Below, piece after piece: positions 799 through 17,317 of a stretch of DNA of 64,000 nucleotides. Position 1 is the stretch's first letter; every line of letters begins with the position of its first letter. Source of the DNA: an uncultured Anaerolineaceae bacterium (lineage in GTDB: Bacteria; Chloroflexota; Limnocylindria; Limnocylindrales; CSP1-4); contig CAZENL010000002.1 of the NCBI GenBank assembly GCA_964513505.1, positions 4,261 to 68,260 on the forward strand, given 5' to 3'. The notes below the pieces were generated by a model. It was not told the DNA's origin, made no database searches, and was given only the letters and a program-made list of their open reading frames with translations. Both the position numbers and the translations under genes were made by a program.

Positions 799-1092
799 TC
801 AACGTGTGATCCAGGCGGGGCGCTGGACCGTTTCTCCGCGCGTGGCCAGGATCTCGGAAAGCCGCGCCTCCATGCGCAGCGCCACGTTATTCGTACGGTC
901 GACCTCCAGGGCCCGCAACGCGAATGCATAGCCGGCGCGCAGGTCCCCCTGCTCGACTTCGCAGTTGGCGAGGCCCAGCAGGGCCTGGCTGTTGCGTGGC
1001 TCGACATCCAGGACTTCGCGGTAGATCCGGCCGGCCTGGTCGATCAGTCCCACGATCAGGAGCCGGTCGGCCTGGAGGAGGCGCTCGTTCAT
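799..1092 (-). CDS. Small TPR-like protein (~97 aa)
   Basis: An internal ATG (MNERLLQADRLL...) overlaps the stop of the upstream CCA gene as ATGA (1089-1092). The residues (ALLGLANCEVEQGDLRAGYAFALRALEVD) are TPR-like. The longer 151-aa ORF-track version has a Gly/Arg-rich N-terminus that is probably not translated. Confidence 0.45.
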   Translation of the reverse strand: MNERLLQADRLLIVGLIDQAGRIYREVLDVEPRNSQALLGLANCEVEQGDLRAGYAFALRALEVDRTNNVALRMEARLSEILATRGETVQRPAWITR

Positions 1093-2453
1093 GCACCGTC
1101 TCCTGCGTTTCCCGCGCGATGCCGCGCGACCGGTGCCAAGGGCGCCGCTTCCTCGGTCCACTGGCGTGCGTCCGCCAGCAGACGCTGGCGGGTGTTCCGC
1201 GTGGGGTCGTTGACCACCGATTCCAGCAGGCGATCCAGGAGTTGCCCGAGCCACGGACCAGGGGTGCCGCCAAGCTCGGCCAGCAGGTCCGAGCCATCGA
1301 CCGACAGGTCGGCCAGCGCGAGCGGGGCGTGCCCCTCTCGCTGGGCGTCGACACGCCCACGCAGCTCGGCCAGGTGTCCGGCGTCAGCAAGGTTGCCGCT
1401 GCCCACGTTGTCCGCCTGGCGCAGCGCCAGGAGATCGTCCACGAGGTTCACGCCGACGCGCCGCATGAAGCGCCGCACTGCCGCGTCGCTCCACTTGGGG
1501 GAGTACTCGAACATGTGCTCCTCGATCAGCCTCGCCACGTGCTCGGCATCCTTCGAAGGGTAGGCGATCCGGCTGAGCCAGCCGCGCGCGATGGCTCCGC
1601 CGGCCGTCGCGTGACCGATGAAGTGGCCATCCGCGAACGTTTCTGGCTTGCCCGAATCGTGCAGCAGCGCCGCCATCGCCAGGCGCGCGTCGCTGGGTCG
1701 CAACGCGGCCGCGGTGTCGACGGCCAGGAGCGTGTGGTCCCAGAGATCGTGGCCCGGGATCTTGTCCTGGCGCAGGCCCCGCTGGCGGGCCAGCGGTGGC
1801 AGGATCGCGGCCAGCAGGCCGGTCGTTTCCAGAATGCGGAGCCCGACCGATGGAACGGGACTCCGCAGGATCCGGCCGATCTCCGCACCGATCCGTTCTG
1901 ATGAGACCAATCGCACGTCGGCCGCGTGACGGCCGATGGCCGCCAGCGTCTGTGCCTCGATGCTCAGGTCGACCTGTGCCGCGAGGCGCGCCGCGCGCAG
2001 CATGCGCAGCGCATCCTCGTCGAAGCGCGTATCCGGATCGCCGACGGCGCGCAAAAGCCCTTCCTCGAGGTCGTGGCGCCCGTCGCTGGGATCCAGGAAC
2101 GCTGGCTCGGAAGATGAAGCCCCACGGCCCCACGCGATGGCATTCACGGTGAAGTCGCGGCGGGCGAGGTCCTCCACCGGGTCCGTGGTGAAGGTGACCT
2201 CGTCGGGACGCCGGTGGTCGCCGTACCGATGGTCGCGGCGAAAGGTGGTCACCTCGATCGCTGGTGGCACCAGCACCGTGCCGAACCGGTTCTGATACGT
2301 GCCATCGGGGAACAGCGCGAGCAGCTCGTCCGGTGTGGCGTCCGTGGAGAGGTCCCAGTTGTCCGTATCGCGGCCAAGGAGGCCGTCACGCACCCCACCG
2401 CCAACCAGGAACGCAGCGTGGCCGTGCTCCCAGAGCGCTCCCATCACGCGCAT
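1089..2453 (-). CDS. cca: CCA-adding tRNA nucleotidyltransferase (polyA polymerase family, HD domain)
   Basis: The N-terminus (MRVMGALWEHGHAAFLVGGGVRDGLLGRDTDNWDLSTDATPDE) carries the Pol-beta nucleotidyltransferase GG..RD..LG motif and DxD. The C-terminal half has an HD motif (LLHDSGK). The start was chosen at M51 of the 504-aa ORF, where the homology begins. Confidence 0.85.
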   Translation of the reverse strand: MRVMGALWEHGHAAFLVGGGVRDGLLGRDTDNWDLSTDATPDELLALFPDGTYQNRFGTVLVPPAIEVTTFRRDHRYGDHRRPDEVTFTTDPVEDLARRDFTVNAIAWGRGASSSEPAFLDPSDGRHDLEEGLLRAVGDPDTRFDEDALRMLRAARLAAQVDLSIEAQTLAAIGRHAADVRLVSSERIGAEIGRILRSPVPSVGLRILETTGLLAAILPPLARQRGLRQDKIPGHDLWDHTLLAVDTAAALRPSDARLAMAALLHDSGKPETFADGHFIGHATAGGAIARGWLSRIAYPSKDAEHVARLIEEHMFEYSPKWSDAAVRRFMRRVGVNLVDDLLALRQADNVGSGNLADAGHLAELRGRVDAQREGHAPLALADLSVDGSDLLAELGGTPGPWLGQLLDRLLESVVNDPTRNTRQRLLADARQWTEEAAPLAPVARHRAGNAGDGA

Positions 2454-2520
2454 GGCGTCCGGGTGGACGGAGAACGGCGGCTGGCCGGTCGGGCGGTCGT
2501 CGGGCGCCACGGCGCCCCTC

Positions 2521-3036
2521 TCAGTTGTGACCGAGGAACAGGTAGTCGCGCCAGGCTTCGTTGCGCGGGTCCGCGAGGTAGGGCGTGAACTGCGTGTAGA
2601 CATCGCAGCGCGGCTCGAACGGTGCGCGCGTCAGGTGCATGCGCGCTTCATCGAGCAGCTTGCCGCCCTTTCGGTGGTTGCACGCCTTGCAGGCGGCAAC
2701 CAGGTTCTCCCACGTGTGCGGCCCACCCCGGTGGCGCGGCACCACATGGTCCAGGGTCAGATCGTGCGTGGTCTTGCCGCAGTACTGGCAGGCGTGGTTG
2801 TCCCGCGCGAAGACCTCGCGGCGCGATAGTCGCACGCGCGGACGTGGCCGTTTGATCATGTACTGGAGCCGGATGATGCTGGGAGCGCGGAAGACCTCCC
2901 GCGGCGTCACCACATCGTGATGGTCGTACTGGATCACCTCGGCCTTCTCCCCGAAGACCAGGCGGAACGCTCGACGCACATCGCACACGTTGAGCGGCTC
3001 GTAATTCGAGTTCAGCAGCAGGACGACGCTATCCAC
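2521..3036 (-). CDS. HNH endonuclease family protein (171 aa)
   Basis: Contains CQYCGK...DHVVPRHRGGPHTWENLVAACKACNHRKGGK, a canonical HNH/zinc-finger nuclease motif with a Cys4 pair and the catalytic His/Asn. Confidence 0.85.
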   Translation of the reverse strand: MDSVVLLLNSNYEPLNVCDVRRAFRLVFGEKAEVIQYDHHDVVTPREVFRAPSIIRLQYMIKRPRPRVRLSRREVFARDNHACQYCGKTTHDLTLDHVVPRHRGGPHTWENLVAACKACNHRKGGKLLDEARMHLTRAPFEPRCDVYTQFTPYLADPRNEAWRDYLFLGHN

Positions 3037-3115: not shown

Positions 3116-4045
3116 TTATTCCCGGTTCGTCGGGGCGCCGCTGACGGCATCCCAGCCGCCTGCCTGACCGACCTTGCTCGCCAGCGGCTTCCCCAGCGCC
3201 GCGGCAATGAAACGGGCTGTGTCGAGGATGGAGGCCAGGTCCACGCCGTGCTGGATGCCCATCCGATCGAGGAAGAAGACCAGGTCCTCCGTGGCCAGGT
3301 TTCCGGCCGCGCCGGGTGCGTATGGGCAGCCACCGGTACCACCGGTGGACGAGTCGAACGTGGCGACGCCGTCATCCAGCGCGGCCGTCACATTGGCGAG
3401 CGCCGTGCCCCGCGTGTCGTGGAAGTGGTAGGCCAGGCGATCCAGCGGCAGGCCCGCGTCCAGCAGAAGGCCGGTGAGCTCGCGAACCTGCGAGGGAACC
3501 CCAACGCCGATGGTGTCGCCAAGGCAGATCTCGTCGGCCCCCAGATCAGCGAGGCGGATGGCAACGTCGATGACCCGTGCGGGATCGACGATGCCGCTGA
3601 ACGGGCAACCGAAGGCCGTCGAGACGTACGCGCGAGTCCACATGCCGGCCTGAGCCGCCCGGGCAAGCACCGGCCGGAAGACCTCGATGGACTCGTCGAC
3701 GGTCATGCCGATGTTCGCCCTGGTGAAGGCGTCCGAGGCCGCCGTGAAGACGGCGATCGCGTCGGCGCCGGCGGCCATGGCCCGTGCAAGGCCGCGCTCG
3801 TTGGGCACGAGGACGGGGTAGCGCACCAACTGGGCATCGGGCAGCAGCGGGATCAGCTCGTCGGCATCCGCCAGCTGCGGAATGGCCCGCGGCGACACGA
3901 AACTGGTGGCCTCGATCTCGCGCAGGCCTGCCGATGCGAGCCGGCGGATGAACTCCAGCTTGACTGCCGTGGGGATGGACGCGGATTCGTTCTGGAGGCC
4001 GTCGCGCGGACCGACCTCGTAGATGCGAACGCGGTCAGGAACCAT
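3116..4045 (-). CDS. liuE: Hydroxymethylglutaryl-CoA lyase
   Basis: MVPDRVRIYEVGPRDGLQNE... has the DRE/TIM-barrel HMGL signature and the conserved GxPxG/CPYAPGAAGN C-terminal motif. Its start overlaps the stop of the upstream carboxylase gene. Confidence 0.9.
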   Translation of the reverse strand: MVPDRVRIYEVGPRDGLQNESASIPTAVKLEFIRRLASAGLREIEATSFVSPRAIPQLADADELIPLLPDAQLVRYPVLVPNERGLARAMAAGADAIAVFTAASDAFTRANIGMTVDESIEVFRPVLARAAQAGMWTRAYVSTAFGCPFSGIVDPARVIDVAIRLADLGADEICLGDTIGVGVPSQVRELTGLLLDAGLPLDRLAYHFHDTRGTALANVTAALDDGVATFDSSTGGTGGCPYAPGAAGNLATEDLVFFLDRMGIQHGVDLASILDTARFIAAALGKPLASKVGQAGGWDAVSGAPTNRE

Positions 4046-4046
4046 G

Positions 4047-6197
4047 TCAGTCCATCTCCACCAGGACATCGCCACGGCCGACCTGCTGGCCGGCCTGGAC
4101 GACGACGCGTTCCACGGTACCTGCCGAGGGCGCCGTGACCGTGTTCTCCATCTTCATGGCCTCCAGGACCACCAGCACCTGGCCGGCCTCGACCAGGTCG
4201 CCATCCGACACACGCACCTGGAGAACCGTCCCCGGCATCGGCGCCGTGACGCCAACCTTGCCCGGCGCGGAACCATGGGCATGCGCCACCGCGGAATCGA
4301 CGGTCGGCGGCGCGGCCAACTCCGCGTGGACAGCGAGGCCGTCGACGTCGATGAAGACGGCCGGGGCCGAGGCTCCAGGCTGGACGACCCACGGCAGTCG
4401 CCCGGCCGCGCCCGGATGCACGGCCACGGATCGTTCCTCCAGCCCGATCGCGACACGCAGCGCGGGACGCGCGTTGAGGCGGAAGCCCGATGTCGGTCGC
4501 CCAGCCGGTTGCCCGGTCAAGGTGGCGAGCGCGGCCGCCGCAACGGGCCATGCGGGATCCGGCGAGGGCTCGCCGCCCGGGTGCCAGGTCCGCTCGATCA
4601 GGTCGGTCGTCGTGTTCCCGGTGCGCACATCCGGATCATCGAGGAGCTGCCGAAGGAAGCCGCGATTGGTCGTAACCCCCAGCACTGAGGCCGACTCGAC
4701 CGCGGCGTGGAGCCGCGCGAGGGCATCCGCACGATCGTTCGCATGGCTCACGATCTTGGCCAGCAACGGGTCATAGCGCGTGCCGACCACGTCGCCCTGG
4801 CCGACTCCGGCATCCACGCGCACACCCGCGCCCGCGGGCCACCGCGTGCCGTGAACGCTGCCGATCGATGGGAGGAAGTCGTTCCAGGGATCTTCTGCGT
4901 AGATGCGGACCTCGATGGCATGCCCGCTCCAGGAGACATCCGCCTGGGCAAGTGCCAGCGGCTCTCCGGCAGCGATGCGCAATTGGTCGGCGACCAGGTC
5001 TCGGCCGGTGACGGCCTCCGTGACCGGGTGCTCGACCTGCAGACGGGCGTTGACCTCCAGGAAGAAGAACCCGCCGTCGGGGTCCAGCAGGAACTCGGCC
5101 GTGCCGGCCCCGACGTAGCCCGCGGCACGAACCAGGCGCAGCGCGGCGTCGCCGAGCCGCTGGCGCAGCGCAGCATTGACCGCGGGGGAAGGTGCTTCCT
5201 CCACCACCTTCTGATGGCGGCGTTGGAGCGAGCAGTCGCGCTCGCCCAGATGCACGGCATTGCCGAAAGCATCCGCCAGGATCTGCACCTCCACGTGCCG
5301 GGGATGCGGCACGTAGCGCTCCAGGATCAGGCGGTCGTTGCCGAATGCCGCGTTGGCCTCGCGCCGGGCACGTGGGAGCGCCTCCATCAGCTGCTCGTGG
5401 TCCAGCGCGACATGCATGCCTTTGCCGCCCCCGCCGGCGCTGGGTTTCACCAGCACGGGATAGCCGATCGCGGCCGCGCTGGCATGCAGCGTTTCGTCGC
5501 GCTGATCGTCGCCGTCGTACCCGGGGACGACCGGCACGCCGACGGCAGCGGCCAGCCGGCGTCCGGCGGCCTTGTCACCCAACGCCCTCATGGCCGCTCC
5601 CGACGGACCGACCCAGCGGATTCCGGCGGCGCTGACGGCGTCGGCAAAGCTCGCGTTTTCCGCCAGGAACCCGTAGCCCGGATGGATCGCGTCCGCGTTT
5701 GCGCGGCGCGCGGCGGCCAGGATGGCATCGGCGTCCAGGTACGTGCCGCTGAGATCCACGCGCTCGTCGACCTGTTGCGCCCACCAGGCCGAACGCTGGT
5801 CCTCGGCAACGAGCGCGATCGGCGTGACGCCGATCGCACGGCAGGTCCGCGCGATGCGCACGACCAGTTCGCCGCGATTGGCGATCAGCAGGCGATGGAT
5901 CGGCGCTCCAGCGACCCATGGCGCTACCGCGGCTTCGGGGACAGCGGCCGAGGGCTGCGCGGCCAAAGGCTCCGCATTCGATCCTGCGACACGATCGTCG
6001 AACGCCGATGGATGGACCTTCAGACGGTCGCCGATCTGGATGGACGGCAGCAGGCCGGCCTTGAGCCAGCGCTGCACGGTACGCGTGCTGACGCCCAGCC
6101 TCCGCGCCGCGTCCGATGGCCCGATCGGTCGCGGCTCTCGACTGCTGCCGCGCGTAGCCATCGGTCGGAGTGTCGCGTTTGTCGCCTTCTGCGTCAA
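4047..6197 (-). CDS. liuD: Methylcrotonyl-CoA (acyl-CoA) carboxylase alpha subunit: biotin carboxylase plus BCCP, with a ~95-aa N-terminal HTH (excisionase/MerR-type) extension
   Basis: Biotin carboxylase motifs (IHRLLIANRGELVVRIARTCRAIGV, ATP-grasp, EMNARLQVEHPVTE) and a C-terminal biotinyl domain (EAMKMEN) are present. The N-terminus carries LGVSTRTVQRWLKAGLLPSIQIGDRLKV, an HTH_17/MerR-like motif. The ORF-track start at 6197 is TTG; an ATG lies at 6161 (MATRGSS). Confidence 0.9.
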   Translation of the reverse strand: MTQKATNATLRPMATRGSSREPRPIGPSDAARRLGVSTRTVQRWLKAGLLPSIQIGDRLKVHPSAFDDRVAGSNAEPLAAQPSAAVPEAAVAPWVAGAPIHRLLIANRGELVVRIARTCRAIGVTPIALVAEDQRSAWWAQQVDERVDLSGTYLDADAILAAARRANADAIHPGYGFLAENASFADAVSAAGIRWVGPSGAAMRALGDKAAGRRLAAAVGVPVVPGYDGDDQRDETLHASAAAIGYPVLVKPSAGGGGKGMHVALDHEQLMEALPRARREANAAFGNDRLILERYVPHPRHVEVQILADAFGNAVHLGERDCSLQRRHQKVVEEAPSPAVNAALRQRLGDAALRLVRAAGYVGAGTAEFLLDPDGGFFFLEVNARLQVEHPVTEAVTGRDLVADQLRIAAGEPLALAQADVSWSGHAIEVRIYAEDPWNDFLPSIGSVHGTRWPAGAGVRVDAGVGQGDVVGTRYDPLLAKIVSHANDRADALARLHAAVESASVLGVTTNRGFLRQLLDDPDVRTGNTTTDLIERTWHPGGEPSPDPAWPVAAAALATLTGQPAGRPTSGFRLNARPALRVAIGLEERSVAVHPGAAGRLPWVVQPGASAPAVFIDVDGLAVHAELAAPPTVDSAVAHAHGSAPGKVGVTAPMPGTVLQVRVSDGDLVEAGQVLVVLEAMKMENTVTAPSAGTVERVVVQAGQQVGRGDVLVEMD

Positions 6198-6333
6198 CCT
6201 TGGAGCCGAACGCGATGGCGTTCAGGCTTGACAGGCAGTGCACCGTTGCCCAAATGGAGTTCGCCGAACCGTGCAGAGGGGAATCGTGGATCGACGCGAC
6301 AGGTCTTTCGTCGTGAGGCCAGGCGGGCGGGGC

Positions 6334-7455
6334 ATGCCATCGCCGCGCTCACTGCTCGCCTCTCTACCGGCAGTCGTCCTGCTGCTGGTGCTGGGCGTCT
6401 CCGGCGCCGCGGCGCGCGGGTCGCAGTTCCCGGTCGGAGATGAGGCCTTCCACACCTACTCGGAGGTCGACTCCGAATTGCATCAGATCGCGGCGGCGCA
6501 TCCCGACATCGCTCAACTTTCTTCCATCGGCAAGTCCTATCAGGGCCGGCAACTCTGGATGCTCAAGATCAGCGACAACGTCAGTGTCGACGAGCCGGAG
6601 CCGGAGGTCCTCTTCACGGGCCTGACCCATGCCCGCGAGCACCTGACCGTGGAGCAGGCCATGGCGCTGATCCACTGGCTGACCGACGGCTATGCCGGCG
6701 ACCCGCAGGTCCAGGGACTCGTCAATTCCACCGAGATCTGGATCGTTCCCATGCTCAACCCGGACGGCGGCGAGTACGACATCCGGAACGGCAAATACCA
6801 CAACTGGCGCAAGGACCGGCAGCCGACGCCGGGATCGACCGCCATCGGCACGGACATCAATCGCAACTTCCCGTACCACTGGGGCTGCTGCGGAGGATCG
6901 AGCTCCAACCCGCTGGCGATCACCTACCGGGGTCCCGCACCCCTCTCCACGCCGGAAGCTCGAGCGGAGGCCAACTTCGTGCAGTCGCGCGTCATCGGCG
7001 GGCAGCAGCAGATCACGCTGGCCATCTCGTTCCACAGCTTCGGCGCCCAGGTGCTCTACGAGTACGGCTACACCACCAACCCGCGGCCCGCGGACATGCC
7101 CAGGAAGGACCACAAGGCCTTGGTCGCGCTGGCCAAGGGAATCGCGTCAAGGAACGGCTATCACGCGCTCCAGGGGAGCCATAACTACATCACCAGCGGC
7201 GGCTTCGGGGACTGGGCCTTTGGCACCCAGGGGATCCTGCACTTCACCATCGAGCTGGCGCCACAGACGACCCGCCAGGGCGGTTTCTACCCGGCAGGCA
7301 GCCAGATCCCGCAGCTCACGCAGAACAACCGCGCGGCGCTGCTCTGGTTCATCGGGCAGGCAGGCTGCCCGTATGACGCGGCCGGCATCACGCACATCTG
7401 TTCGGCGGCGTCCACGTCGGCGGACGCGTCCCTGCGCGAGATGCGGGACCTCTAG
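6334..7455 (+). CDS. Secreted zinc carboxypeptidase, peptidase M14 family
   Basis: Signal peptide MPSPRSLLASLPAVVLLLVLGVSGAAA. M14 motifs are the HxxE zinc ligand (LTHAREHLTVE), NPDG and a downstream His. The ORF-track start at 6238 is an upstream in-frame extension. Confidence 0.85.
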   Translation: MPSPRSLLASLPAVVLLLVLGVSGAAARGSQFPVGDEAFHTYSEVDSELHQIAAAHPDIAQLSSIGKSYQGRQLWMLKISDNVSVDEPEPEVLFTGLTHAREHLTVEQAMALIHWLTDGYAGDPQVQGLVNSTEIWIVPMLNPDGGEYDIRNGKYHNWRKDRQPTPGSTAIGTDINRNFPYHWGCCGGSSSNPLAITYRGPAPLSTPEARAEANFVQSRVIGGQQQITLAISFHSFGAQVLYEYGYTTNPRPADMPRKDHKALVALAKGIASRNGYHALQGSHNYITSGGFGDWAFGTQGILHFTIELAPQTTRQGGFYPAGSQIPQLTQNNRAALLWFIGQAGCPYDAAGITHICSAASTSADASLREMRDL

Positions 7456-7907
7456 CGCTCGGGCTCGTCCTCGCTCATTGACGCCACCTCTGCAGGGGTC
7501 GCCGCCTTTTGTCGTGGCGCCACCCGCGGTCGCCGCAGGCCCTTCGTTCGGGCGGCCGCCGCGGCGCCCGGCTCGGGCTCGCTGATGACGCCCTCGCCCG
7601 GCAATCCGATGCCGATGACCGTGCCGTCCGCCGTCCTCACTACGCCCGCGCTGTCGCGCTGCATACGCTGGATCGACGCCGGGTCGCGGAAGATGTCCGC
7701 ATCGATGCCGTGCATGATCCCGGCGATCGCCGGGCCAAAGCCACCGGAACCGGTCCGGCGAAGGGGTCGCAGGTCCTCGTCCGGCGCCCCAACTGGCGCG
7801 CCCGTCCCCTGGGCTTCGGGAGCGCCTGCGGCGGGTGAAGCGGTCGCGGGTGTCAGCGGGGCAGCCCGCCGTCGGGGGGTGATGAGTTCCTTGCGCTTGC
7901 TAGCCAT
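7452..7907 (-). CDS. Hypothetical protein (~151 aa, basic N-terminus, Ala/Pro-rich)
   Basis: An internal ATG (MASKRKELITP...) overlaps the stop of the upstream enoyl-CoA hydratase by 8 nt. A conserved-looking core (GFGPAIAGIMHGIDADIFRDPASIQRMQRD) is present but no recognised domain. Confidence 0.4.
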   Translation of the reverse strand: MASKRKELITPRRRAAPLTPATASPAAGAPEAQGTGAPVGAPDEDLRPLRRTGSGGFGPAIAGIMHGIDADIFRDPASIQRMQRDSAGVVRTADGTVIGIGLPGEGVISEPEPGAAAAARTKGLRRPRVAPRQKAATPAEVASMSEDEPER

Positions 7908-8709
7908 CTGAATCGACCTTCCATGCGGGCTCGCGGCGCTCCATGAACGCGCGCAGCCCTTCTTGTCCCTCTGGACTGATCCGTTGCGTGGCGATCCGGC
8001 GCGCCGTGTGCCAGCGCGTCGATTCGTGGGGCAGCCCCCGAACTTCGCGCACGATCGCTTTGGCGGCTCTGGCTGCGGTAGGACCGGCGGCCAGGATGTC
8101 CGCGACCGCCTGGTCGACGGCCGCGTCGAGCGCATCGGGTCCCTCGACCACTTCATGCACGAGACCGATCCGCAGGGCACGCATGGCATCGAAACGGCGG
8201 CCGCCCGGGAACAGTGCACGTGCCTGGCTCTCGCCGATCTTGGCGATCACGAATGGCGCGATCACCGCGGGCAGAATGCCCAGCCGCGTCTCCGTGAACC
8301 CGAACTTGGCGCCCGATTCGGCAATCACCAGGTCGCTGACCGCGCACAGCCCCATGCCGCCCCCCATGGCCGCGCCGTGGACGCGGGCGATGACGGGGAC
8401 TGGGCACGTGTCGATGGCGTCATACATGTGCGCCAGCATCATGGCGTCCTGCTCGTTGCCCTCGCGATCGAGCTCAAGGCTCGCGCGCATCCAGGCGACG
8501 TCGCCGCCGGCGCAGAAGGACGGGCCATTTCCCGCCAGCACCACCGCCCGCAGGGTCTTGGGTTCCTCGCGTGCCAGGCCGGCGAATGCACGCCGAATTT
8601 CATCGATGAGGCCGGCGTCGAACGCGTTGTGCACCTCGGGCCGGTTGAGGGTCACCCGCGCGACGACGTTTCCCGGCCCGGAATGCTGGATCTGGAGGCG
8701 GTCGCTCAT
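7900..8709 (-). CDS. liuC: Enoyl-CoA hydratase/isomerase (crotonase fold); probable methylglutaconyl-CoA hydratase
   Basis: The crotonase signature (VVLAGNGPSFCAGGDV...GAAMGGGMGLCAVSDLVIA) is present, and the gene sits in the liu-like context. Confidence 0.85.
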   Translation of the reverse strand: MSDRLQIQHSGPGNVVARVTLNRPEVHNAFDAGLIDEIRRAFAGLAREEPKTLRAVVLAGNGPSFCAGGDVAWMRASLELDREGNEQDAMMLAHMYDAIDTCPVPVIARVHGAAMGGGMGLCAVSDLVIAESGAKFGFTETRLGILPAVIAPFVIAKIGESQARALFPGGRRFDAMRALRIGLVHEVVEGPDALDAAVDQAVADILAAGPTAARAAKAIVREVRGLPHESTRWHTARRIATQRISPEGQEGLRAFMERREPAWKVDSDG

Positions 8710-10043
8710 ACAGCGGCCACGCGCTCGCTGACGGAGGGGGCCGGATCGGCGGTGGGGTCGAACGTGTACATGTCGCGTGTCGCGATGCGACGTAGGCCTG
8801 CGGCGGTCACGTTGTGTTCGGACAGACTGTCGAGGCCGGTGTGCGCCGCGATCAGGTCACAGCCATCCTCGATCGCCAGCCGGATGCGCTCGCGGATCAG
8901 CGCTCGCTGCAGCCCGCGGCCGCGGTACTCGGGCAGGACCGTGCCGGTCCGCATCAGGCCGACACGCCTGTGGGTGGAGAGCAGCCCGGTTGCCACCGGC
9001 CGTCCGTGCCTCTCGGCAAGGACCGCGTGGACGCCGCGGGAGGCCAGCAGGTACGGCATCAGGGCAGCGACTCGGTCCCGGTCGAAGCCCAGGCCGGCGA
9101 AGACCGTCGCAGCCACGCCGGTGAAGGCCGCGAAATCGTCCGGGCCCACCCGGCGGACCGTGAAGCCATCGGGCAGCTCCCCGATGGCCAGGACACCTTC
9201 TGGGAGACTCGCCACGTCCGCTGCCAGGACGGCCAGCTGGTATTCCGGCTGAGCGCCGGGCCACGGCGCTCGATCGATGCCGAAACTCCCGGCAACACCG
9301 TGGGATCGATAGAAGTCCAGTACACGCGGCAGCAGGTTGGGCAGCGTGCGCAGACCGAGCGCATGGTTGAAGACGGGCTCCTGGGCATCCGGCGCGCATG
9401 CCATGGCCAGCTCCTCATCCACGGAGACGTGGATGTCCACGCCACCGCTCGCGGCGGCCGCCCACAGGCGCGCGTCTGCCTTCAGCTCGGCGGCGTCGAT
9501 CCGGGCCAGGCGTTCCCAGGCATCCGCGTCGGAGCCATCGCCGAGCGGCAGCACCTGGATGGAATCGCCGGGCCGCACCTCACCGGGCACCACGACGCGC
9601 GCATACATGCGGCTGTCGTCCGGGAAGAGAACGCGGGAGATGCGCTTGAACTCGCCGCGGATGAAGTTCTGGCGCTGCGTCTCGCATGGGTTTGCGGGCG
9701 TGGTCAGCTCAAGGACCAGTTCCGATCCGACCTTGACCCGCGTCCCGCCAGGCAGTCGGGACCACTCCACGCCGGACGTGGTCAGGTTCTCGCCGACACC
9801 GCCGATCTCGGTCGGGTGGCCTTCCGCCTGCAGCCTCTCGATGGCCTCGATCGCGAACAGGCATACGGCGCGCAGGGGGCCGCCGTGGACCGTGTCTTCG
9901 CGGTGCCGGTCCCCGTCAAGGCCCAGTTCACCAACCCAGGCACGCTCGACCGGCAGCTTGGGCACACCGCCGTCGTTGAGGTTGACGCTGAGGACGCGGC
10001 CGGCACTCACCTGCCGGTCCTCGGGCTCGTGGTTTGCGGCCAA
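8706..10043 (-). CDS. MOSC domain protein fused to a C-terminal GNAT acetyltransferase
   Basis: The N-terminal MOSC beta-barrel region (VLSVNLNDGGVPKLPV...VHGGPLRAVCLF...ANPC) is followed by GNAT motifs in the C-terminal half (GLQRALIRERI). There is a 4-nt start/stop overlap with the downstream gene. Confidence 0.75.
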   Translation of the reverse strand: MAANHEPEDRQVSAGRVLSVNLNDGGVPKLPVERAWVGELGLDGDRHREDTVHGGPLRAVCLFAIEAIERLQAEGHPTEIGGVGENLTTSGVEWSRLPGGTRVKVGSELVLELTTPANPCETQRQNFIRGEFKRISRVLFPDDSRMYARVVVPGEVRPGDSIQVLPLGDGSDADAWERLARIDAAELKADARLWAAAASGGVDIHVSVDEELAMACAPDAQEPVFNHALGLRTLPNLLPRVLDFYRSHGVAGSFGIDRAPWPGAQPEYQLAVLAADVASLPEGVLAIGELPDGFTVRRVGPDDFAAFTGVAATVFAGLGFDRDRVAALMPYLLASRGVHAVLAERHGRPVATGLLSTHRRVGLMRTGTVLPEYRGRGLQRALIRERIRLAIEDGCDLIAAHTGLDSLSEHNVTAAGLRRIATRDMYTFDPTADPAPSVSERVAAV

Positions 10044-12739: not shown

Positions 12740-14377
12740 CTACATCCGGAAGACACCGAACTTCGTGTCATCGATGGGTGCGTTGAGCGACGCAGAGATG
12801 GCCAGCGCCAGCACCTCCCGCGTCTGCGCCGGGTCGATCACGCCGTCGTCCCAGAGGCGGGCCGTGGAGTAGTAGGGATTGCCCTCGCGCTCGTACTTCT
12901 CCAGGATCGGCGCCTCCCAGGCCGCGCGCTCCTCCGGAGAGCTCCACTCGCCACGGACCGTGGACAGCACGGTGGCCGCCTGCTGGCCGCCCATCACGCT
13001 GATCCGCGCATTCGGCCACATCCACAGCCCGCGGCTGCCGTACGCGCGGCCGGCCATGCCGTAGTTGCCGGCCCCGAAGGAGCCGCCGATGATCACCGTG
13101 AACTTGGGCACGGCCGCGCAGGAGACGGCGGTCACCAGTTTGGCGCCGTCCTTGGCAATGCCGCCGGCTTCGTACTCGCGACCGACCATGAAGCCGGTGA
13201 TGTTCTGGAGGAAGACCAGCGGCACCTTGCGCTCGCAGGCGAGCTCGATGAAGTGGGCACCTTTCAGGGCGCTCTGGCTGAAGAGGACGCCATTGCTCGC
13301 CAGGATGCCGACGGGGAATCCGTCGATGGCGGCGAAGCCCGTGACCAGCGTCTCCCCGTAGGCCGGCTTGAACTCGTGGAATTCCGACGCGTCCACGATT
13401 CGGGCGATGACCTCGCGGACGTCGTAGCCCTTGCGCAGATCCACCGAAGCGGCTCCGTACATCCCGGTCGGGTCCTCCGCAGCGAGCATTGCATCCTCTC
13501 GATCCGGGGTCGCCACGGACGGCGGCCGCGACGCGCTCCGGATCCACGGCAATTCGGGCTTCTTCCAGGCCAGGCTGCCAACGATCTCCCGCCCGAGCGC
13601 CAGCGCGTGCTCGTCGTCGAGGGCCTCGTAGTCGGCGACGCCGCTGATCCGGGCGTGGACCGCGGCACCACCCAGGTCCTCGGCGCTCACCTCTTCCCCG
13701 GTGGCCGCTTTGACCAGCGGCGGCCCACCCAGGAAGATCGTGCCGGTGCCGCGGACGATGACGGTCTCGTCGCTCATCGCGGGCACGTAGGCGCCACCGG
13801 CCGTGCAGGAGCCCATGACCAGCGCGACCTGCGGAATGCCGCGCGCCGACATCTGGGCCTGGTTGTAGAAGATCCGGCCGAAGTGGTCGCGGTCCGGGAA
13901 AACCTCGTCCTGGAGCGGCAGGAACGCACCGCCGGAGTCGACCAGGTAGATGCACGGCACACGGTCGGCCAGGGCAATCTCCTGCGCCCGCAGGTGCTTC
14001 TTCACGGTCATCGGGTAGTAGGTGCCGCCCTTCACCGTCGCGTCGTTGGCGACGATCACGCATTCCACGCCCTTCACCGTGCCGATGCCGGTGACGATTC
14101 CGGCGCCGGGCGCTTCGTTGTCATAGAGGCCGTTGGCGGCCAGGGGGCTCAGTTCCAGGAACGGCGAGCCCGGGTCCAGCAGCCGGTCGACGCGTTCCCG
14201 CACCGGCAACTTGCCGCGTTCCACGTGGCGTGCCACGGAACGAGCGTCTCCCGCCGCGCCGCGCTCAGTTAACGCGTTCGTCCTCGACCGGAGATCCGCC
14301 ACGAGAGCGCGCATCGCGGCGGCGTTGGCTCGCACCTCCGGGCTGGCGGGGTCGACGCGGGTTCGCAACACGGCCAT
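12740..14377 (-). CDS. liuB: Methylcrotonyl-CoA carboxylase beta subunit (carboxyltransferase)
   Basis: Carboxyltransferase N and C domains are present ([11 protein letters not shown], acetyl-CoA carboxylase beta-like). The start at M41 (MAVLRTRV) was chosen from homology; upstream codons are antisense to the PadR promoter region. Confidence 0.9.
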
Positions 14378-14404
14378 GGGCGGATGGTAGCGACCGCTCG
14401 GTTC

Positions 14405-14432
14405 TTGACAGGTGGGAGATAGCGATATATCG
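14405..14432 (+). promoter_or_regulatory. Candidate PadR promoter/operator: TTGACA-15-TATATC overlapping a perfect 10-bp palindrome CGATATATCG, in the only AT-rich intergenic stretch
   Basis: Positions derived from ORF-frame arithmetic. GATAG is repeated three times just downstream. About 55 nt upstream of the PadR ATG, in the divergent liuB/padR region. Confidence 0.35.
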
Positions 14433-14486
14433 TGACAGTGCGCCGATAGAACGACAGATAGTCGGCAGGCGCAATTCAAGGAGGAC

Positions 14487-15203
14487 ATGGTGTTCAACCA
14501 CCATCACAACGAACCCGGCCGAGGGCGGCGCGAGCGTCGCCACGACCCGGATCACGATATGGGAGCCGAGCACGAGCATCGGCGTGGCCGCGGCCCGGGT
14601 CCCGACCGCGGCGGCTGGCAGTGGCGCGCGTTTGGCCCCGGCGCCGGACGCGGCATGGCCAGCGCGTTCGGACGCGGACCGGTGGCGCGTCGCGGCGATG
14701 TCCGCACGGCCATCCTGGCATTGCTGGCGGAGAGCCCGATGCACGGGTACCAGGTCATGCAGGAGCTGCGGGACCGCAGCGGCGGCGCGTGGGCCCCGAG
14801 CGCCGGTTCCATCTACCCCACGCTGCAGCAGCTCGAGGACGAGGGCCTGGTCCGCGTCGAGGAGCGCGATGGTCGGCGGGTATTCACGCTGACGGAGCCC
14901 GGGCGAGTGGAGGCGACGGCCGCCAAGCCGGGTGCGCACTGGGACGTGAACCGGGGCCGCGAGGGAGCCGACCTCCGTGGCCTGATCGCCCAGGTCGCGC
15001 AGGCGTCAGTGCAGGTGTTTCAGGTTGGCAGCCCGGCGGCCATCGCCGAGGCCGAGCGCATCCTGACCGCCACGCGCCGGAGTCTCTATCAGCTCCTGGC
15101 GGGCGACGATGAGAAGAGCCCAACCGACGCGACAGGAAATCCAACCACGGTGACTGAGCCGTCTGACGGGTCCGACCAGGCCTCGCGGGAGGCGAACGCC
15201 TAG
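14487..15203 (+). CDS. PadR-family transcriptional regulator with an Arg/His-rich N-terminal extension
   Basis: The winged-helix PadR core is [22 protein letters not shown]...[16 protein letters not shown]. An AAGGAGG Shine-Dalgarno precedes the ATG. It lies divergent from liuB. Confidence 0.8.
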
Positions 15204-17317
15204 CGGTCGCCCGAGGCGAGCTCCGGGTCGGAAGACTCACCGGGCCGGTCGCCGCCCGTGCGGGCGGGCCGGTAGCGGAAGTAGGCCCAGGTGCCGAATG
15301 AGACGATGCCAAAGGTGACCAGAAACACGATGCCGACGAGCATCGGCGCCTGGCTGTCGTTGGAGAGGTAGCCGTTGGCGGGATCGACCAGGATCAGCAG
15401 GTAGCCGAAGATCGCCAGCGCAAACAGCGGGAACCAGAGGCTTCGCCGCCACGCGAACAGCGGATGCCCAGGCAGGAAGCGCATCGGGAGCAGCCCGATC
15501 ACCAGCGCTTCGATACCGGCCACCACGAACGTGGCCAGGATCGTCTGGATGAACAGCTGCAACGTGGCGTCGCCGCCCATCTGGCGGGCGATTCCCAGCA
15601 GGATCCAGGCCACGAAGCTGAGCGCGAGTAGCCACAGCGAGGCCAGCCAGGTGCCCAGGCCCTCGTCGCGCAGGCTGATCTCGGTGACGAAGACGATCGA
15701 GATGATCAGCCCATACAGATAGCCCGGCTGGAAGCCGGACAGGCGCGAAATGAGCACGCACACGATCGCGATGAGCAGCGTCCACCAGAGTGCCCGAAGC
15801 ACGCCGGCGTCCTGCTTCTTGGTTCGTCGGCGGTGGTACACGCGCAGCGGCAGGTCGAACGCGGCCGTGATGAAGCTCAAGCCCACGACCAGGCCAAGGA
15901 ACAGGATCAGTGAGTTGGAGTTGAGGCCGAAGGCAGGGCTGAGGAAGCCGTAGACCAAGGCGCTCAGGAGCAGGAACAGCCAGACCCCGGTCGAGCCGGT
16001 CATCGCCGCTCCCAGCCAGCCGACCACGGGCTTCAGCGGACCGACGGCGACCCGCGAGACCAGGTCATGCCAGCGCTTGCGCAGCTTCGCGAACCAGCCC
16101 TGGATCTCTCCGTAGTTGGCCTCGACGGTCTTGTTGAAGAGCGTGCCGGGGAATGGGATGAGGAACGCCACGAGGAGCGCCAGGAAGGCGCTCGTGCCCA
16201 CCGTTCCCAGGCTGTGGAGCGTGCCGTCGGCGCCCGGGTCGCGCAGGTACTGCGGCCAGAACGTTGGCGTCGCCGTGGCCTGCGGTGTCGGGCCAGGAGT
16301 CGGCCCAGGCGGCACCACGGTTGCAACGGTCGGCCCGGGGGTCGCGGTCGGCTCGGCCGTGACCTGCGGCGCGGAACCGGCTGTCTGGGCAGGCGTGGCC
16401 GTCGGAGCCGGCGTAACCGGCGGCTCGGGTGTGACGACCGGACTGGGGCTCGGCTCCGGCGACGGGCTCGGTGCCGGCGCAGGCGTCAGCGTCGGGCTCG
16501 GAGTGGGGCTCGGAGTGGGGCTCGGAGTCGGAGTCGGAGTCGGGGTCGGCGTCGGCTGCGGCGTGGGCCGAGGCGTCGGACGCGGGGTCGGACGTGGAGT
16601 TGGTCGAGGCGTTGGCTGGGGTGTCGGCTGGGGTGTCGGCCGCGGGGTCGGGCGTGGAGTTGGCCGAGGTGTGGGGCGCGGGGTGCGCGTTGGTGTCGGA
16701 GTGGGCGTGGGAGTCGGAGTAGGCGTCGGGGTAGGTGTAGGTGTCGGAGTTGGGGTGGGCGTAGGTGTAGGTGTCGGCGTGGGACTCGGCGTGGGACTCG
16801 GCGTCGGACTCGGCGTGGGACTCGGCGTGGGACTCGGCGTGGGACTCGGCGTCGGGCTCGGGCTCGGCGACGGGGTCGGCGTAGGAGCGGCGCTGACCGT
16901 GAACTGCGCCTGCGCCTGTTGCTGTGGCCCGGTTCCGCACGTAACCACACCATTCGCCGCCACCATTTCGCAGGCGATGACCGTATGCGGCCCGGTCGCG
17001 GCGCCCGCGGGAACCTGCACCGTCACGGGGCCGAATGTGCCGTCGAGAGCCACCGGCGTTGGTGCGCCCAGCTGCGTGGCGGTCGTATCCCAGAAGATCG
17101 AGACGGACGCCGGCGCAGAGAAGCCCGGCGCAAATCCTGTGCCAGAGACGTCGAAGGATGAGCCCGCCAACCCGGTGCTCGGCGTCAGGGCGACTTGGGC
17201 GACCGTTCCGGCCAGAATTGTCCCGACGGCCGTTGTCAGGAAGACGAACGCCAGCGCTGCCACGACGGAATTGCGCCGCCATCGGCGCCACTGTTCGCTA
17301 TTGACCCCTCGAAACAC
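15200..17317 (-). CDS. Large membrane protein: signal peptide, extracellular domain, ~200-aa Pro/Thr/Ser linker, and C-terminal polytopic membrane domain
   Basis: GTG start. The N-terminal signal/TM region is followed by an (PTPS/PTPRPT)n linker from tandem repeats, then about 8 hydrophobic helices. The reading frame is supported by the ordered domain architecture, but alternative frames across the repeat are also open. Confidence 0.55.
16480..16900. repeat. Tandem degenerate GC-rich repeats (units such as GGCGTGGGACTCGGC, GGTGTAGGTGTC) encoding the Pro/Thr linker
   Basis: About 420 nt of short-period direct repeats on the + strand, with multiple near-identical 15-nt units in tandem. Confidence 0.8.

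Follow-up and report, generated by a model that had tools for sequence, protein, structure and literature searches.

What does a DNA-binding domain do at the front of a metabolic enzyme? The question is raised by a 64,000-nucleotide stretch of DNA from an uncultured Anaerolineaceae bacterium (Chloroflexota, Limnocylindria, CSP1-4; contig CAZENL010000002.1 of assembly GCA_964513505.1, positions 4,261 to 68,260), which we call the window at its full length. An original prediction, made from the sequence of the window, had read one minus-strand open reading frame (ORF) as a helix-turn-helix (HTH) regulator of the MerR type fused to the LiuD-like alpha subunit of methylcrotonyl-CoA carboxylase (MCC), and had proposed an inverted repeat in neighbouring intergenic DNA as its site. 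We found that the fusion stands and that a regulatory role at the gene's own promoter is its best reading; the LiuR-type domain, the inverted-repeat operator and the TTG start codon proposed with it do not stand. The locus holds a conserved, apparently undescribed enzyme-regulator fusion with a precise candidate operator. Autoregulation of the carboxylase gene, by repression, through binding of the enzyme-borne HTH to a tandem repeat in its promoter would best explain the observations, and we give this reading a probability of roughly 0.6.

The ORF ending at position 4047 is open back to 6197, a reading of 716 residues in which the HTH passes into the biotin carboxylase without a stop; the two do share one frame, as had been claimed, and their domains score above curated cutoffs. 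Counted from the ATG at 6161 (ORF 4047-6161, minus strand), the product has 704 residues in four parts: a winged helix-turn-helix, a disordered linker, a complete biotin carboxylase and a biotin carboxyl carrier protein (BCCP) domain with an AMKM biotinylation motif. The parts and the evidence for each, including models from AlphaFold2 (AF2) with their predicted local distance difference test (pLDDT) values, are as follows.

6000..6125, minus strand: winged helix-turn-helix, residues 13-54, made of a helix, the recognition helix STRTVQRWLK, a beta-hairpin wing and a short helix (HTH_17, TIGR01764, AF2, Foldseek)
5904..5999, minus strand: Ala/Pro-rich flexible linker, residues 55-86, about 32 residues (AF2 pLDDT, homologue spacing)
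4557..5903, minus strand: biotin carboxylase (ATP-grasp), residues 87-535 (Biotin_carb_N, CPSase_L_D2, Biotin_carb_C; PDB relatives)
4050..4556, minus strand: interaction region of biotin carboxylase and carboxyltransferase (BC-CT), followed by the BCCP domain, residues 536-704 (Biotin_lipoyl at residues 650-715 of the 716-residue ORF)
4152-4154, minus strand: codon of the biotinyl-lysine K670 within EAMKME (Biotin_lipoyl, alignment A4)

The Pfam family HTH_17 (PF12728; cutoff 27) matched residues 27-68 of the 716-residue reading, which are 13-54 from ATG 6161, with 35.0 bits in the full protein and 38.8 bits when the N-terminus was searched alone. TIGR01764 ('excise', excisionase family DNA-binding) scored 32.3 bits against a cutoff of 28.8, and PF00376 reached 31.0 bits with the N-terminus alone but 27.9 bits, below its cutoff of 28.2, when the full protein was searched. 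The enzyme part fused behind the HTH comprises 618 residues. Its four Pfam domains (Biotin_carb_N, CPSase_L_D2, Biotin_carb_C and Biotin_lipoyl) have E-values from 1e-20 to 1e-73, and its biotinylation motif (EAMKME/AMKM) is invariant in alignment A4. An Ala/Pro linker had also been predicted, and residues 55-86 agree with it: in the full-length AF2 model, pLDDT is below 50 for linker residues 57-81 and the enzyme part is folded with confidence.

When species-representative genomes were scanned with the peptide of the HTH, in answer to the call for a survey of homologues, 34 loci were found, numbered from L001. The first 27 are almost all from Chloroflexota of the Limnocylindria/CSP1-4 group, a soil and freshwater lineage, and about 25 Limnocylindria genomes at species level carry the fusion in frame. 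The HTH frame continues into the ANRGE signature of the enzyme (LLVANRGE or a near variant) in 24 of the 26 loci L001-L026, counting three in-frame loci that run off their contig before the motif. Three copies are interrupted and are either frameshift errors in metagenome-assembled genomes (MAGs) or pseudogenes: L009, with a short fusion ORF of 263 residues, and L018, which stops after 155 residues before the ANRGE motif, are frameshift-like, and L027 is a divergent, frameshifted copy (431+422 residues). Contigs labelled Egibacteraceae, Sulfotelmatobacter and Caenarcaniphilales (L006, L016 and P0248) also carry the fusion; they are short or binned, group with Limnocylindria and are probably mis-binned.

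A search with the full-length protein gave the same picture, with both HTH and enzyme in 110 of the 120 best clusters and gene calls beginning inside the HTH in most of the other 10. One cluster member, P0156, is 100% identical to the window protein over 704 residues and starts at ATG 6161. The database names of these proteins vary between 'excisionase family DNA binding protein' and 'methylcrotonyl-CoA carboxylase alpha'. When the N-terminal 99 residues were compared by HMMER with 1.8 billion representatives, the top matches were multi-copy HTH_17 proteins; clustering at 50% follows the enzyme part and hides the fusion orthologues in that library. The best of these matches (P0009-P0014) have an unusual architecture of 5-8 tandem HTH copies in 350-620 residues.

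The fused domain is also maintained by selection. Across 39 HTH codons in 26 sequences, the pairwise nucleotide differences amount to 0.20 at the first codon position, 0.13 at the second and 0.54 at the third, and the codon pairs comprise 5253 synonymous and 2652 non-synonymous differences; the HTH codons are under strong purifying selection. The linker sequence is unconserved: the spacing from RTVQRW to ANRGE ranges from 36 to 104 residues among homologues, there is no conserved Met, and 15 of the 26 loci have no ATG, GTG or TTG in the linker at all. Because of the selection on the HTH codons and the lack of conserved starts in the linker, production of an HTH-less enzyme is not a conserved option. 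The original prediction had considered such a fusion undescribed for a biotin carboxylase, and our literature search found no paper on an HTH fusion to any biotin-dependent carboxylase.

What kind of DNA-binding domain does the enzyme carry? AF2 placed helices at residues 15-22 and 26-34 and strands at 40-43 and 46-49, with a pLDDT of 74 for the N-terminus alone and of 87-93 for residues 13-54 in the full-length model. Searched against the PDB with Foldseek, the model matched the excisionase (Xis) of mycobacteriophage Pukovnik (4j2n) first and the BldC-DNA complexes 6ama and 6amk after it, followed by the excisionase RdfS (8dgl) and RacA. The best matches had template modelling (TM) scores of 0.58-0.76 normalised to the target and 0.62-0.66 normalised to the query, at 23-33% identity; classical MerR proteins ranked well below Xis and BldC, and the RbkR-DNA complex (5trd) was among the weak matches. 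Profile searches gave E-values of 3.5e-6 for Xis, 3.6e-5 for RacA and 3.7e-4 for BldC, and a single-sequence search agreed on these relatives. In alignment A3 the recognition-helix residues R27, T28, Q30, R31 and W32 are invariant. By sequence and model, then, the HTH groups with the monomeric winged helices of Xis, BldC and RacA. A LiuR-type MerR regulator had been expected, and this expectation failed: after residue 56 comes a disordered linker, with no coiled-coil dimerisation helix and no effector domain.

LiuR, the MerR-superfamily HTH regulator of the same (liu) pathway in proteobacteria, is a protein of its own, dimeric and palindrome-binding, in which a coiled coil and a C-terminal domain accompany the HTH. 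The fusion HTH, unlike LiuR, lacks such a C-terminal part, and its candidate site is a direct repeat inside a 17-nt promoter spacer. It likewise differs from classical MerR regulators in having neither a palindromic operator nor an over-long spacer of 19-20 bp. Among excisionases, Pukovnik Xis is the best match in both structure and sequence (Foldseek rank 1, root-mean-square deviation 1.6 Å, 32% identity), and it shares the HTH_17/TIGR01764 family with RdfS and the fusion. Excisionases bind arrays of direct repeats as oligomers, and RdfS is described as oligomeric. Unlike the excisionases of phages and of integrative and conjugative elements, the fusion gene has no integrase, attachment site or mobile element nearby; its neighbours are metabolic genes in conserved synteny.

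The comparison with BldC bears most directly on how DNA might be read. BldC has no MerR dimerisation helix; it lines up head to tail on direct repeats, each unit site measuring 9 bp, and contacts the DNA through K26, T27, T29, R30, W31 and K33 plus a basic wing (PMC5859096). The fusion HTH is, like BldC (6ama, 6amk), a minimal MerR-like/Xis-like winged helix without a dimerisation helix (31-33% identity, target-normalised TM about 0.7), and in the HMMER alignment the six contact residues correspond to R, T, Q, R, W and K. Its candidate site is a 9-bp tandem direct repeat, like the 9-bp direct repeats of BldC, which predicts head-to-tail binding by analogy. The BldC family model (NF033787) gave 18.7 bits against a cutoff of 77, which places the domain outside that family, and unlike BldC, a free-standing pleiotropic protein of 68 residues, it is covalently fused to an enzyme subunit and has one candidate site, at its own promoter. 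We therefore regard action in the manner of BldC or Xis as an analogy at most.

That site came from aligning the upstream DNA of 27 HTH-bearing sequences (the window and L001-L026), which share the block TTGACA-N4/5-AACGCGACAAACGCGACATT. It can be read as a promoter with a -35 box TTGACA, a 17-nt spacer and a -10-like GACATT. In the window the elements are, in the order of transcription:

6192..6197, minus strand: -35 box TTGACG, consensus TTGACA (alignment of 27 sequences)
6175-6191, minus strand: promoter spacer of 17 nt (read from the window)
6171..6188, minus strand: tandem direct repeat AAGGCGACA-AACGCGACA, consensus AACGCGACA twice with period 9, candidate operator (repeat finder family D1; position weight matrix)
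6169..6174, minus strand: -10-like hexamer GACACT, consensus GACATT, 17 nt after the -35 box (alignment of HTH-bearing loci)
6159..6161, minus strand: ATG start codon, 7 nt after the -10-like hexamer (conserved geometry; start of P0156)

A TTGAC(A/G)-type box lies 4-5 nt upstream of the repeat in the alignment; L001 and L019 have variants of it. The first start codon in frame comes, in most loci, 6-9 nt past the -10-like hexamer (8-11 nt past the repeat), whatever the length of the peptide before the HTH. Relative to the HTH the block is read in all three frames across loci; it is therefore conserved as DNA, not as protein. The TTG at 6197, taken earlier as the start, is formed by the first bases of the conserved -35 box and can be set aside, and the ATG at 6161, also named in the original prediction, is the start favoured by both the conserved geometry and P0156. 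There is no Shine-Dalgarno sequence, and no GGAGG, upstream of this ATG. The mRNA is probably leaderless or nearly so, judging from a geometry that fits in most loci, with a weak -10. No second gene within the 64 kb shows the same TTGAC-17-NANNNT-start arrangement. In two loci, L002 (5963-6040) and L026 (3917-4000), no in-frame ATG, GTG or TTG lies between promoter and HTH, which implies a CTG or ATA start or a sequence error. An RNA element in the leader was considered and rejected (an opposite-strand Rfam match of 19 bits against 58.7, folding z = -1.3).

The tandem repeat fills the promoter spacer and overlaps the -10, and (AACGCGACA)x2 is present in all 27 HTH-bearing loci. A position weight matrix (PWM) built from the 27 sites found exactly one site in each HTH-bearing locus, in every case a short way before the start codon. 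The site in the window scored 31.8 bits; among about 128,000 positions there, the runner-up scored 9.9 bits. By PWM there is no second site in the 12-kb cluster loci or the 64-kb window, except that two divergent loci, L025 (6116-6133, minus strand) and L027 (6162-6179, minus strand), and no others, carry an inverted copy of the operator-like 18-mer within the region that encodes the HTH (24-30 bits). About one locus in three has TTCGCG past the -10; it was considered as a third repeat unit and was not convincing. Scanning metagenomes for the exact 18-mer was uninformative about a regulon, as most matches listed were chance hits or tandem repeats in unrelated DNA; among the matches listed, at least three sites were followed by an HTH, in addition to the incomplete L059.

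The inverted repeat that had been put forward as the operator (6239-6247 and 6267-6275, 19-nt gap) did not hold up. It pairs at 8 of 9 positions, lies below the 6-nt seed of the repeat finder and is absent from the 156 loci searched. The intergenic stretch that contains it exists here only through the insertion of a divergent M14 carboxypeptidase gene, and no equivalent was found when the other three loci with this peptidase gene (L001, L014 and L026) were inspected by eye.

Orthologues that lack both the HTH and the repeat are a control supplied by nature. There are three close ones (L155, L156 and L157; 63-66% identity). L155 has the synteny of the window, with MOSC/GNAT, hydratase, carboxylase, HMG-CoA lyase, HNH and CCA/poly(A) polymerase genes, and in it 15 nt separate the hydratase stop from the start of the carboxylase gene, which is preceded by a purine-rich stretch resembling a Shine-Dalgarno sequence. 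In L156 the carboxylase and hydratase genes overlap, and a Shine-Dalgarno-like sequence is present. Neither of these two loci has a PWM match of 6 bits or more. L157 has a promoter-like site, TTGACA-17-GACAGT, with a spacer free of repeats. HTH and repeat are both present in 27 of 27 loci and both missing in 3 of 3. In a midpoint-rooted neighbour-joining tree, which carries no resampling support, the three HTH-less proteins form one subclade nested among the HTH-bearing ones.

Which enzyme, and which pathway, would be under this control? The best named solved relatives are MCC alpha chains (Pseudomonas aeruginosa 3u9s, E 2e-150, 506 bits; human MCCA, 477 bits), and the top PDB match by bits is an unspecified 'biotin carboxylase' (9yx0_D, 517 bits). 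Alpha chains of propionyl-CoA carboxylase (PCC) scored 443-452 bits against 477-506 for the named MCC alpha chains, a modest margin. None of the solved chains found in this comparison covers residues 1-84. The genes around the carboxylase gene are the following.

3116..4075, minus strand: 3-hydroxy-3-methylglutaryl-CoA (HMG-CoA) lyase gene, overlapping the 3' end of the carboxylase gene by 29 nt (NCBIfam NF004283, 372 bits against a cutoff of 246)
6333..7455, plus strand: M14 carboxypeptidase gene, divergent, between the hydratase gene and the carboxylase promoter (Pfam Peptidase_M14)
7900..8709, minus strand: enoyl-CoA (methylglutaconyl-CoA-type) hydratase gene (Pfam ECH_1; synteny)
12740..14497, minus strand: carboxyltransferase (MCC beta) gene of the cluster (Pfam Carboxyl_trans; PDB 3u9r_B)

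Against P. aeruginosa MCC beta (3u9r_B) the carboxyltransferase scored 771 bits; the comparison with geranyl-CoA carboxylase beta gave 415 bits and that with PCC beta no more than 265. The HMG-CoA lyase gene follows the carboxylase gene in every locus long enough to show that side. In most relatives the hydratase gene, whose profile match reaches the level of the crotonase family only, lies directly upstream of the carboxylase promoter and ends 30-60 nt from the -35 box. Synteny with MCC beta, hydratase and HMG-CoA lyase is kept among related loci. Because its best relatives are MCC alpha chains and its neighbours are the HMG-CoA lyase, hydratase and MCC beta genes, the enzyme is, on sequence grounds, the alpha subunit of 3-methylcrotonyl-CoA carboxylase (liuD/mccA-type) in a leucine/isovalerate catabolic cluster. 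The LiuD-like identity proposed at the outset is thus upheld by the PDB relatives, the MCC beta score and the HMG-CoA lyase overlap. The 64-kb window contains no further leucine-catabolic genes besides the cluster.

Several other genes accompany the cluster. The M14 insertion, found only in the window, L001, L014 and L026, is outside the conserved module; it encodes a zinc carboxypeptidase of the secreted type, and the TTGACA on the plus strand at 6228-6233 is a possible -35 box for it. An ORF at 8706-10043 (minus strand), with an N-terminal MOSC and a C-terminal GNAT acetyltransferase domain, is a conserved part of the cluster: almost every related locus has it, with the carboxyltransferase gene on one side and the hydratase gene on the other. 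After the HMG-CoA lyase gene come an HNH endonuclease gene (2521-3036, minus strand) and a gene of the CCA-adding/poly(A) polymerase family (1089-2603, minus strand), whose position is kept in 23-24 loci. A PadR-family regulator gene (14487-15203, plus strand) adjoins the carboxyltransferase gene and faces away from it. Downstream of the PadR gene and convergent with it is a 705-residue ORF (15200-17317, minus strand), with coding-like GC content at third codon positions and no Pfam match at E <1e-5.

Taken together, these observations suggest the following scheme. The carboxylase gene would be driven by its own promoter inside the leucine-catabolic cluster, with the HTH as the first part translated. 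The two 9-bp repeats would be bound by two HTH domains arranged head to tail, in the manner of BldC and Xis. The alpha subunits of the MCC holoenzyme form trimers (P. aeruginosa structure 3u9s), and the two domains would probably be held close by these trimers within the alpha6-beta6 assembly, a proximity that could stand in for the cooperativity of free BldC. Because the repeats occupy the spacer and the -10, overlapping contacts of RNA polymerase, binding would repress the carboxylase gene and, as a co-transcribed target, the HMG-CoA lyase gene. As enzyme accumulates, it would thereby limit its own synthesis and hold carboxylase and lyase production in check.

Such a protein would resemble the trigger enzymes BirA, PutA and NadR and the archaeal RbkR, which also combine an enzyme and a DNA-binding domain in one polypeptide and act at the promoter of their own pathway genes, where the fusion has its candidate operator. 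It differs from them in its Xis/BldC-type DNA-binding fold and in its enzyme class, an ATP-grasp/BCCP subunit of a heteromeric alpha6-beta6 carboxylase. To our knowledge and in the searches made, no known enzyme-regulator fusion involves a biotin-dependent carboxylase or an Xis/BldC-type domain.

Several points weigh against autoregulation by repression. That the HTH binds the repeat, in which direction it regulates and whether assembly, biotinylation or substrate matters are inferences from the computed features. The three orthologues without the HTH belong to a single subclade, so that HTH and repeat were probably lost together once, not three times. BldC reads an AT-rich minor groove (AATTNNNNC) whereas the candidate site is GC-rich, and the mode of reading therefore cannot be identical. 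The -10-like hexamer matches TATAAT at only three of six positions (A2, A4 and T6), which is why a generic promoter and terminator scan, including its sigma-70 search, makes no call at the carboxylase promoter. Conservation of the second repeat could in part reflect its role as a -10, and two loci, L002 and L026, lack a canonical start codon at the expected place. Finally, the site scan covered the 12-kb loci and the 64-kb window, and sites elsewhere, or another regulator that uses the repeat, are possible.

The sign could be the opposite: the HTH might bind the same repeat and activate, the bound enzyme recruiting or stabilising RNA polymerase, which would give positive autoregulation or substrate-dependent induction. 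The -10-like GACATT/GACACT, weak against the consensus and passed over by the generic scan, would suit a promoter in need of help, and BldC is reported to act as both repressor and activator. We nevertheless hold activation to be improbable, as the repeat sits between -35 and -10 and overlaps the -10, a position that usually occludes RNA polymerase, and the spacer already has the optimal 17 nt, so that no promoter realignment in the style of MerR is needed.

It is just as improbable, in our judgement, that the HTH has an architectural role, tethering the carboxylase to the nucleoid or to other sites, with the repeat either belonging to a promoter of unusual form or serving some other regulator. 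RacA, a chromosome-anchoring protein with the same TVQRW helix, is among the structural matches, the reach of the site scan leaves room for distant sites, and the PadR-family gene beside the carboxyltransferase gene offers a candidate regulator. For this gene no tblastn match was found in the fetched loci, which are possibly too short upstream of the carboxyltransferase gene. Against tethering or a separate regulator stands the joint presence of HTH and repeat in 27 of 27 loci and their joint absence in 3 of 3. In addition, L157 keeps the promoter-like TTGACA-17-GACAGT with neither repeats nor HTH, and a general liu regulator would not show a lone site, the only one found in the 12-kb loci and the 64-kb window.

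Far less probable is that the HTH is a functionless relic of a fused excisionase-like gene, or an untranslated leader with the enzyme starting near IHRLLIANRGE. An in-frame TTG does encode linker residue 66 in the window, three nt downstream of a GGAG, and the broken MAG copies L009, L018 and L027 would suit a decaying domain. Neither version accounts for the strong purifying selection on the HTH codons, for recognition-helix residues that are invariant across more than 100 clusters, for the 15 of 26 loci without a possible internal start or for a start position conserved relative to the promoter. The last alternative, that two genes were merged by a sequencing error in the contig or by its annotation, is effectively refuted, since the same open frame recurs in independent assemblies from many studies and many species; a stop or frameshift separating two genes, once named as a threat to the fusion, is therefore not one.

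Repression by the enzyme-borne HTH accordingly remains the reading we prefer, and it allows a bolder and more tentative version. The assembled holoenzyme might itself be the transcription factor, the BldC-like domains on its trimeric alpha caps binding the repeats cooperatively, so that occupancy would report the state of assembly, biotinylation or substrate. If true, this would be a new class of trigger enzyme, a biotin-dependent carboxylase joined to a head-to-tail reader of direct repeats and fixed in an entire bacterial class.

The analysis corrects the start codon and flags the label 'excisionase family DNA binding protein' on what is a carboxylase subunit. It also yields a prediction that is compact and open to test, namely a 40-bp promoter with two 9-bp repeats. 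Fusions of an enzyme with a regulator, of which BirA, PutA and RbkR are examples, are rare, and they are instructive in that they couple metabolism directly to transcription. Limnocylindria are an abundant, uncultured lineage of soil and freshwater, and throughout this class of Chloroflexota, as the conserved pairing of domain and repeat suggests, an enzyme subunit probably controls its own gene.

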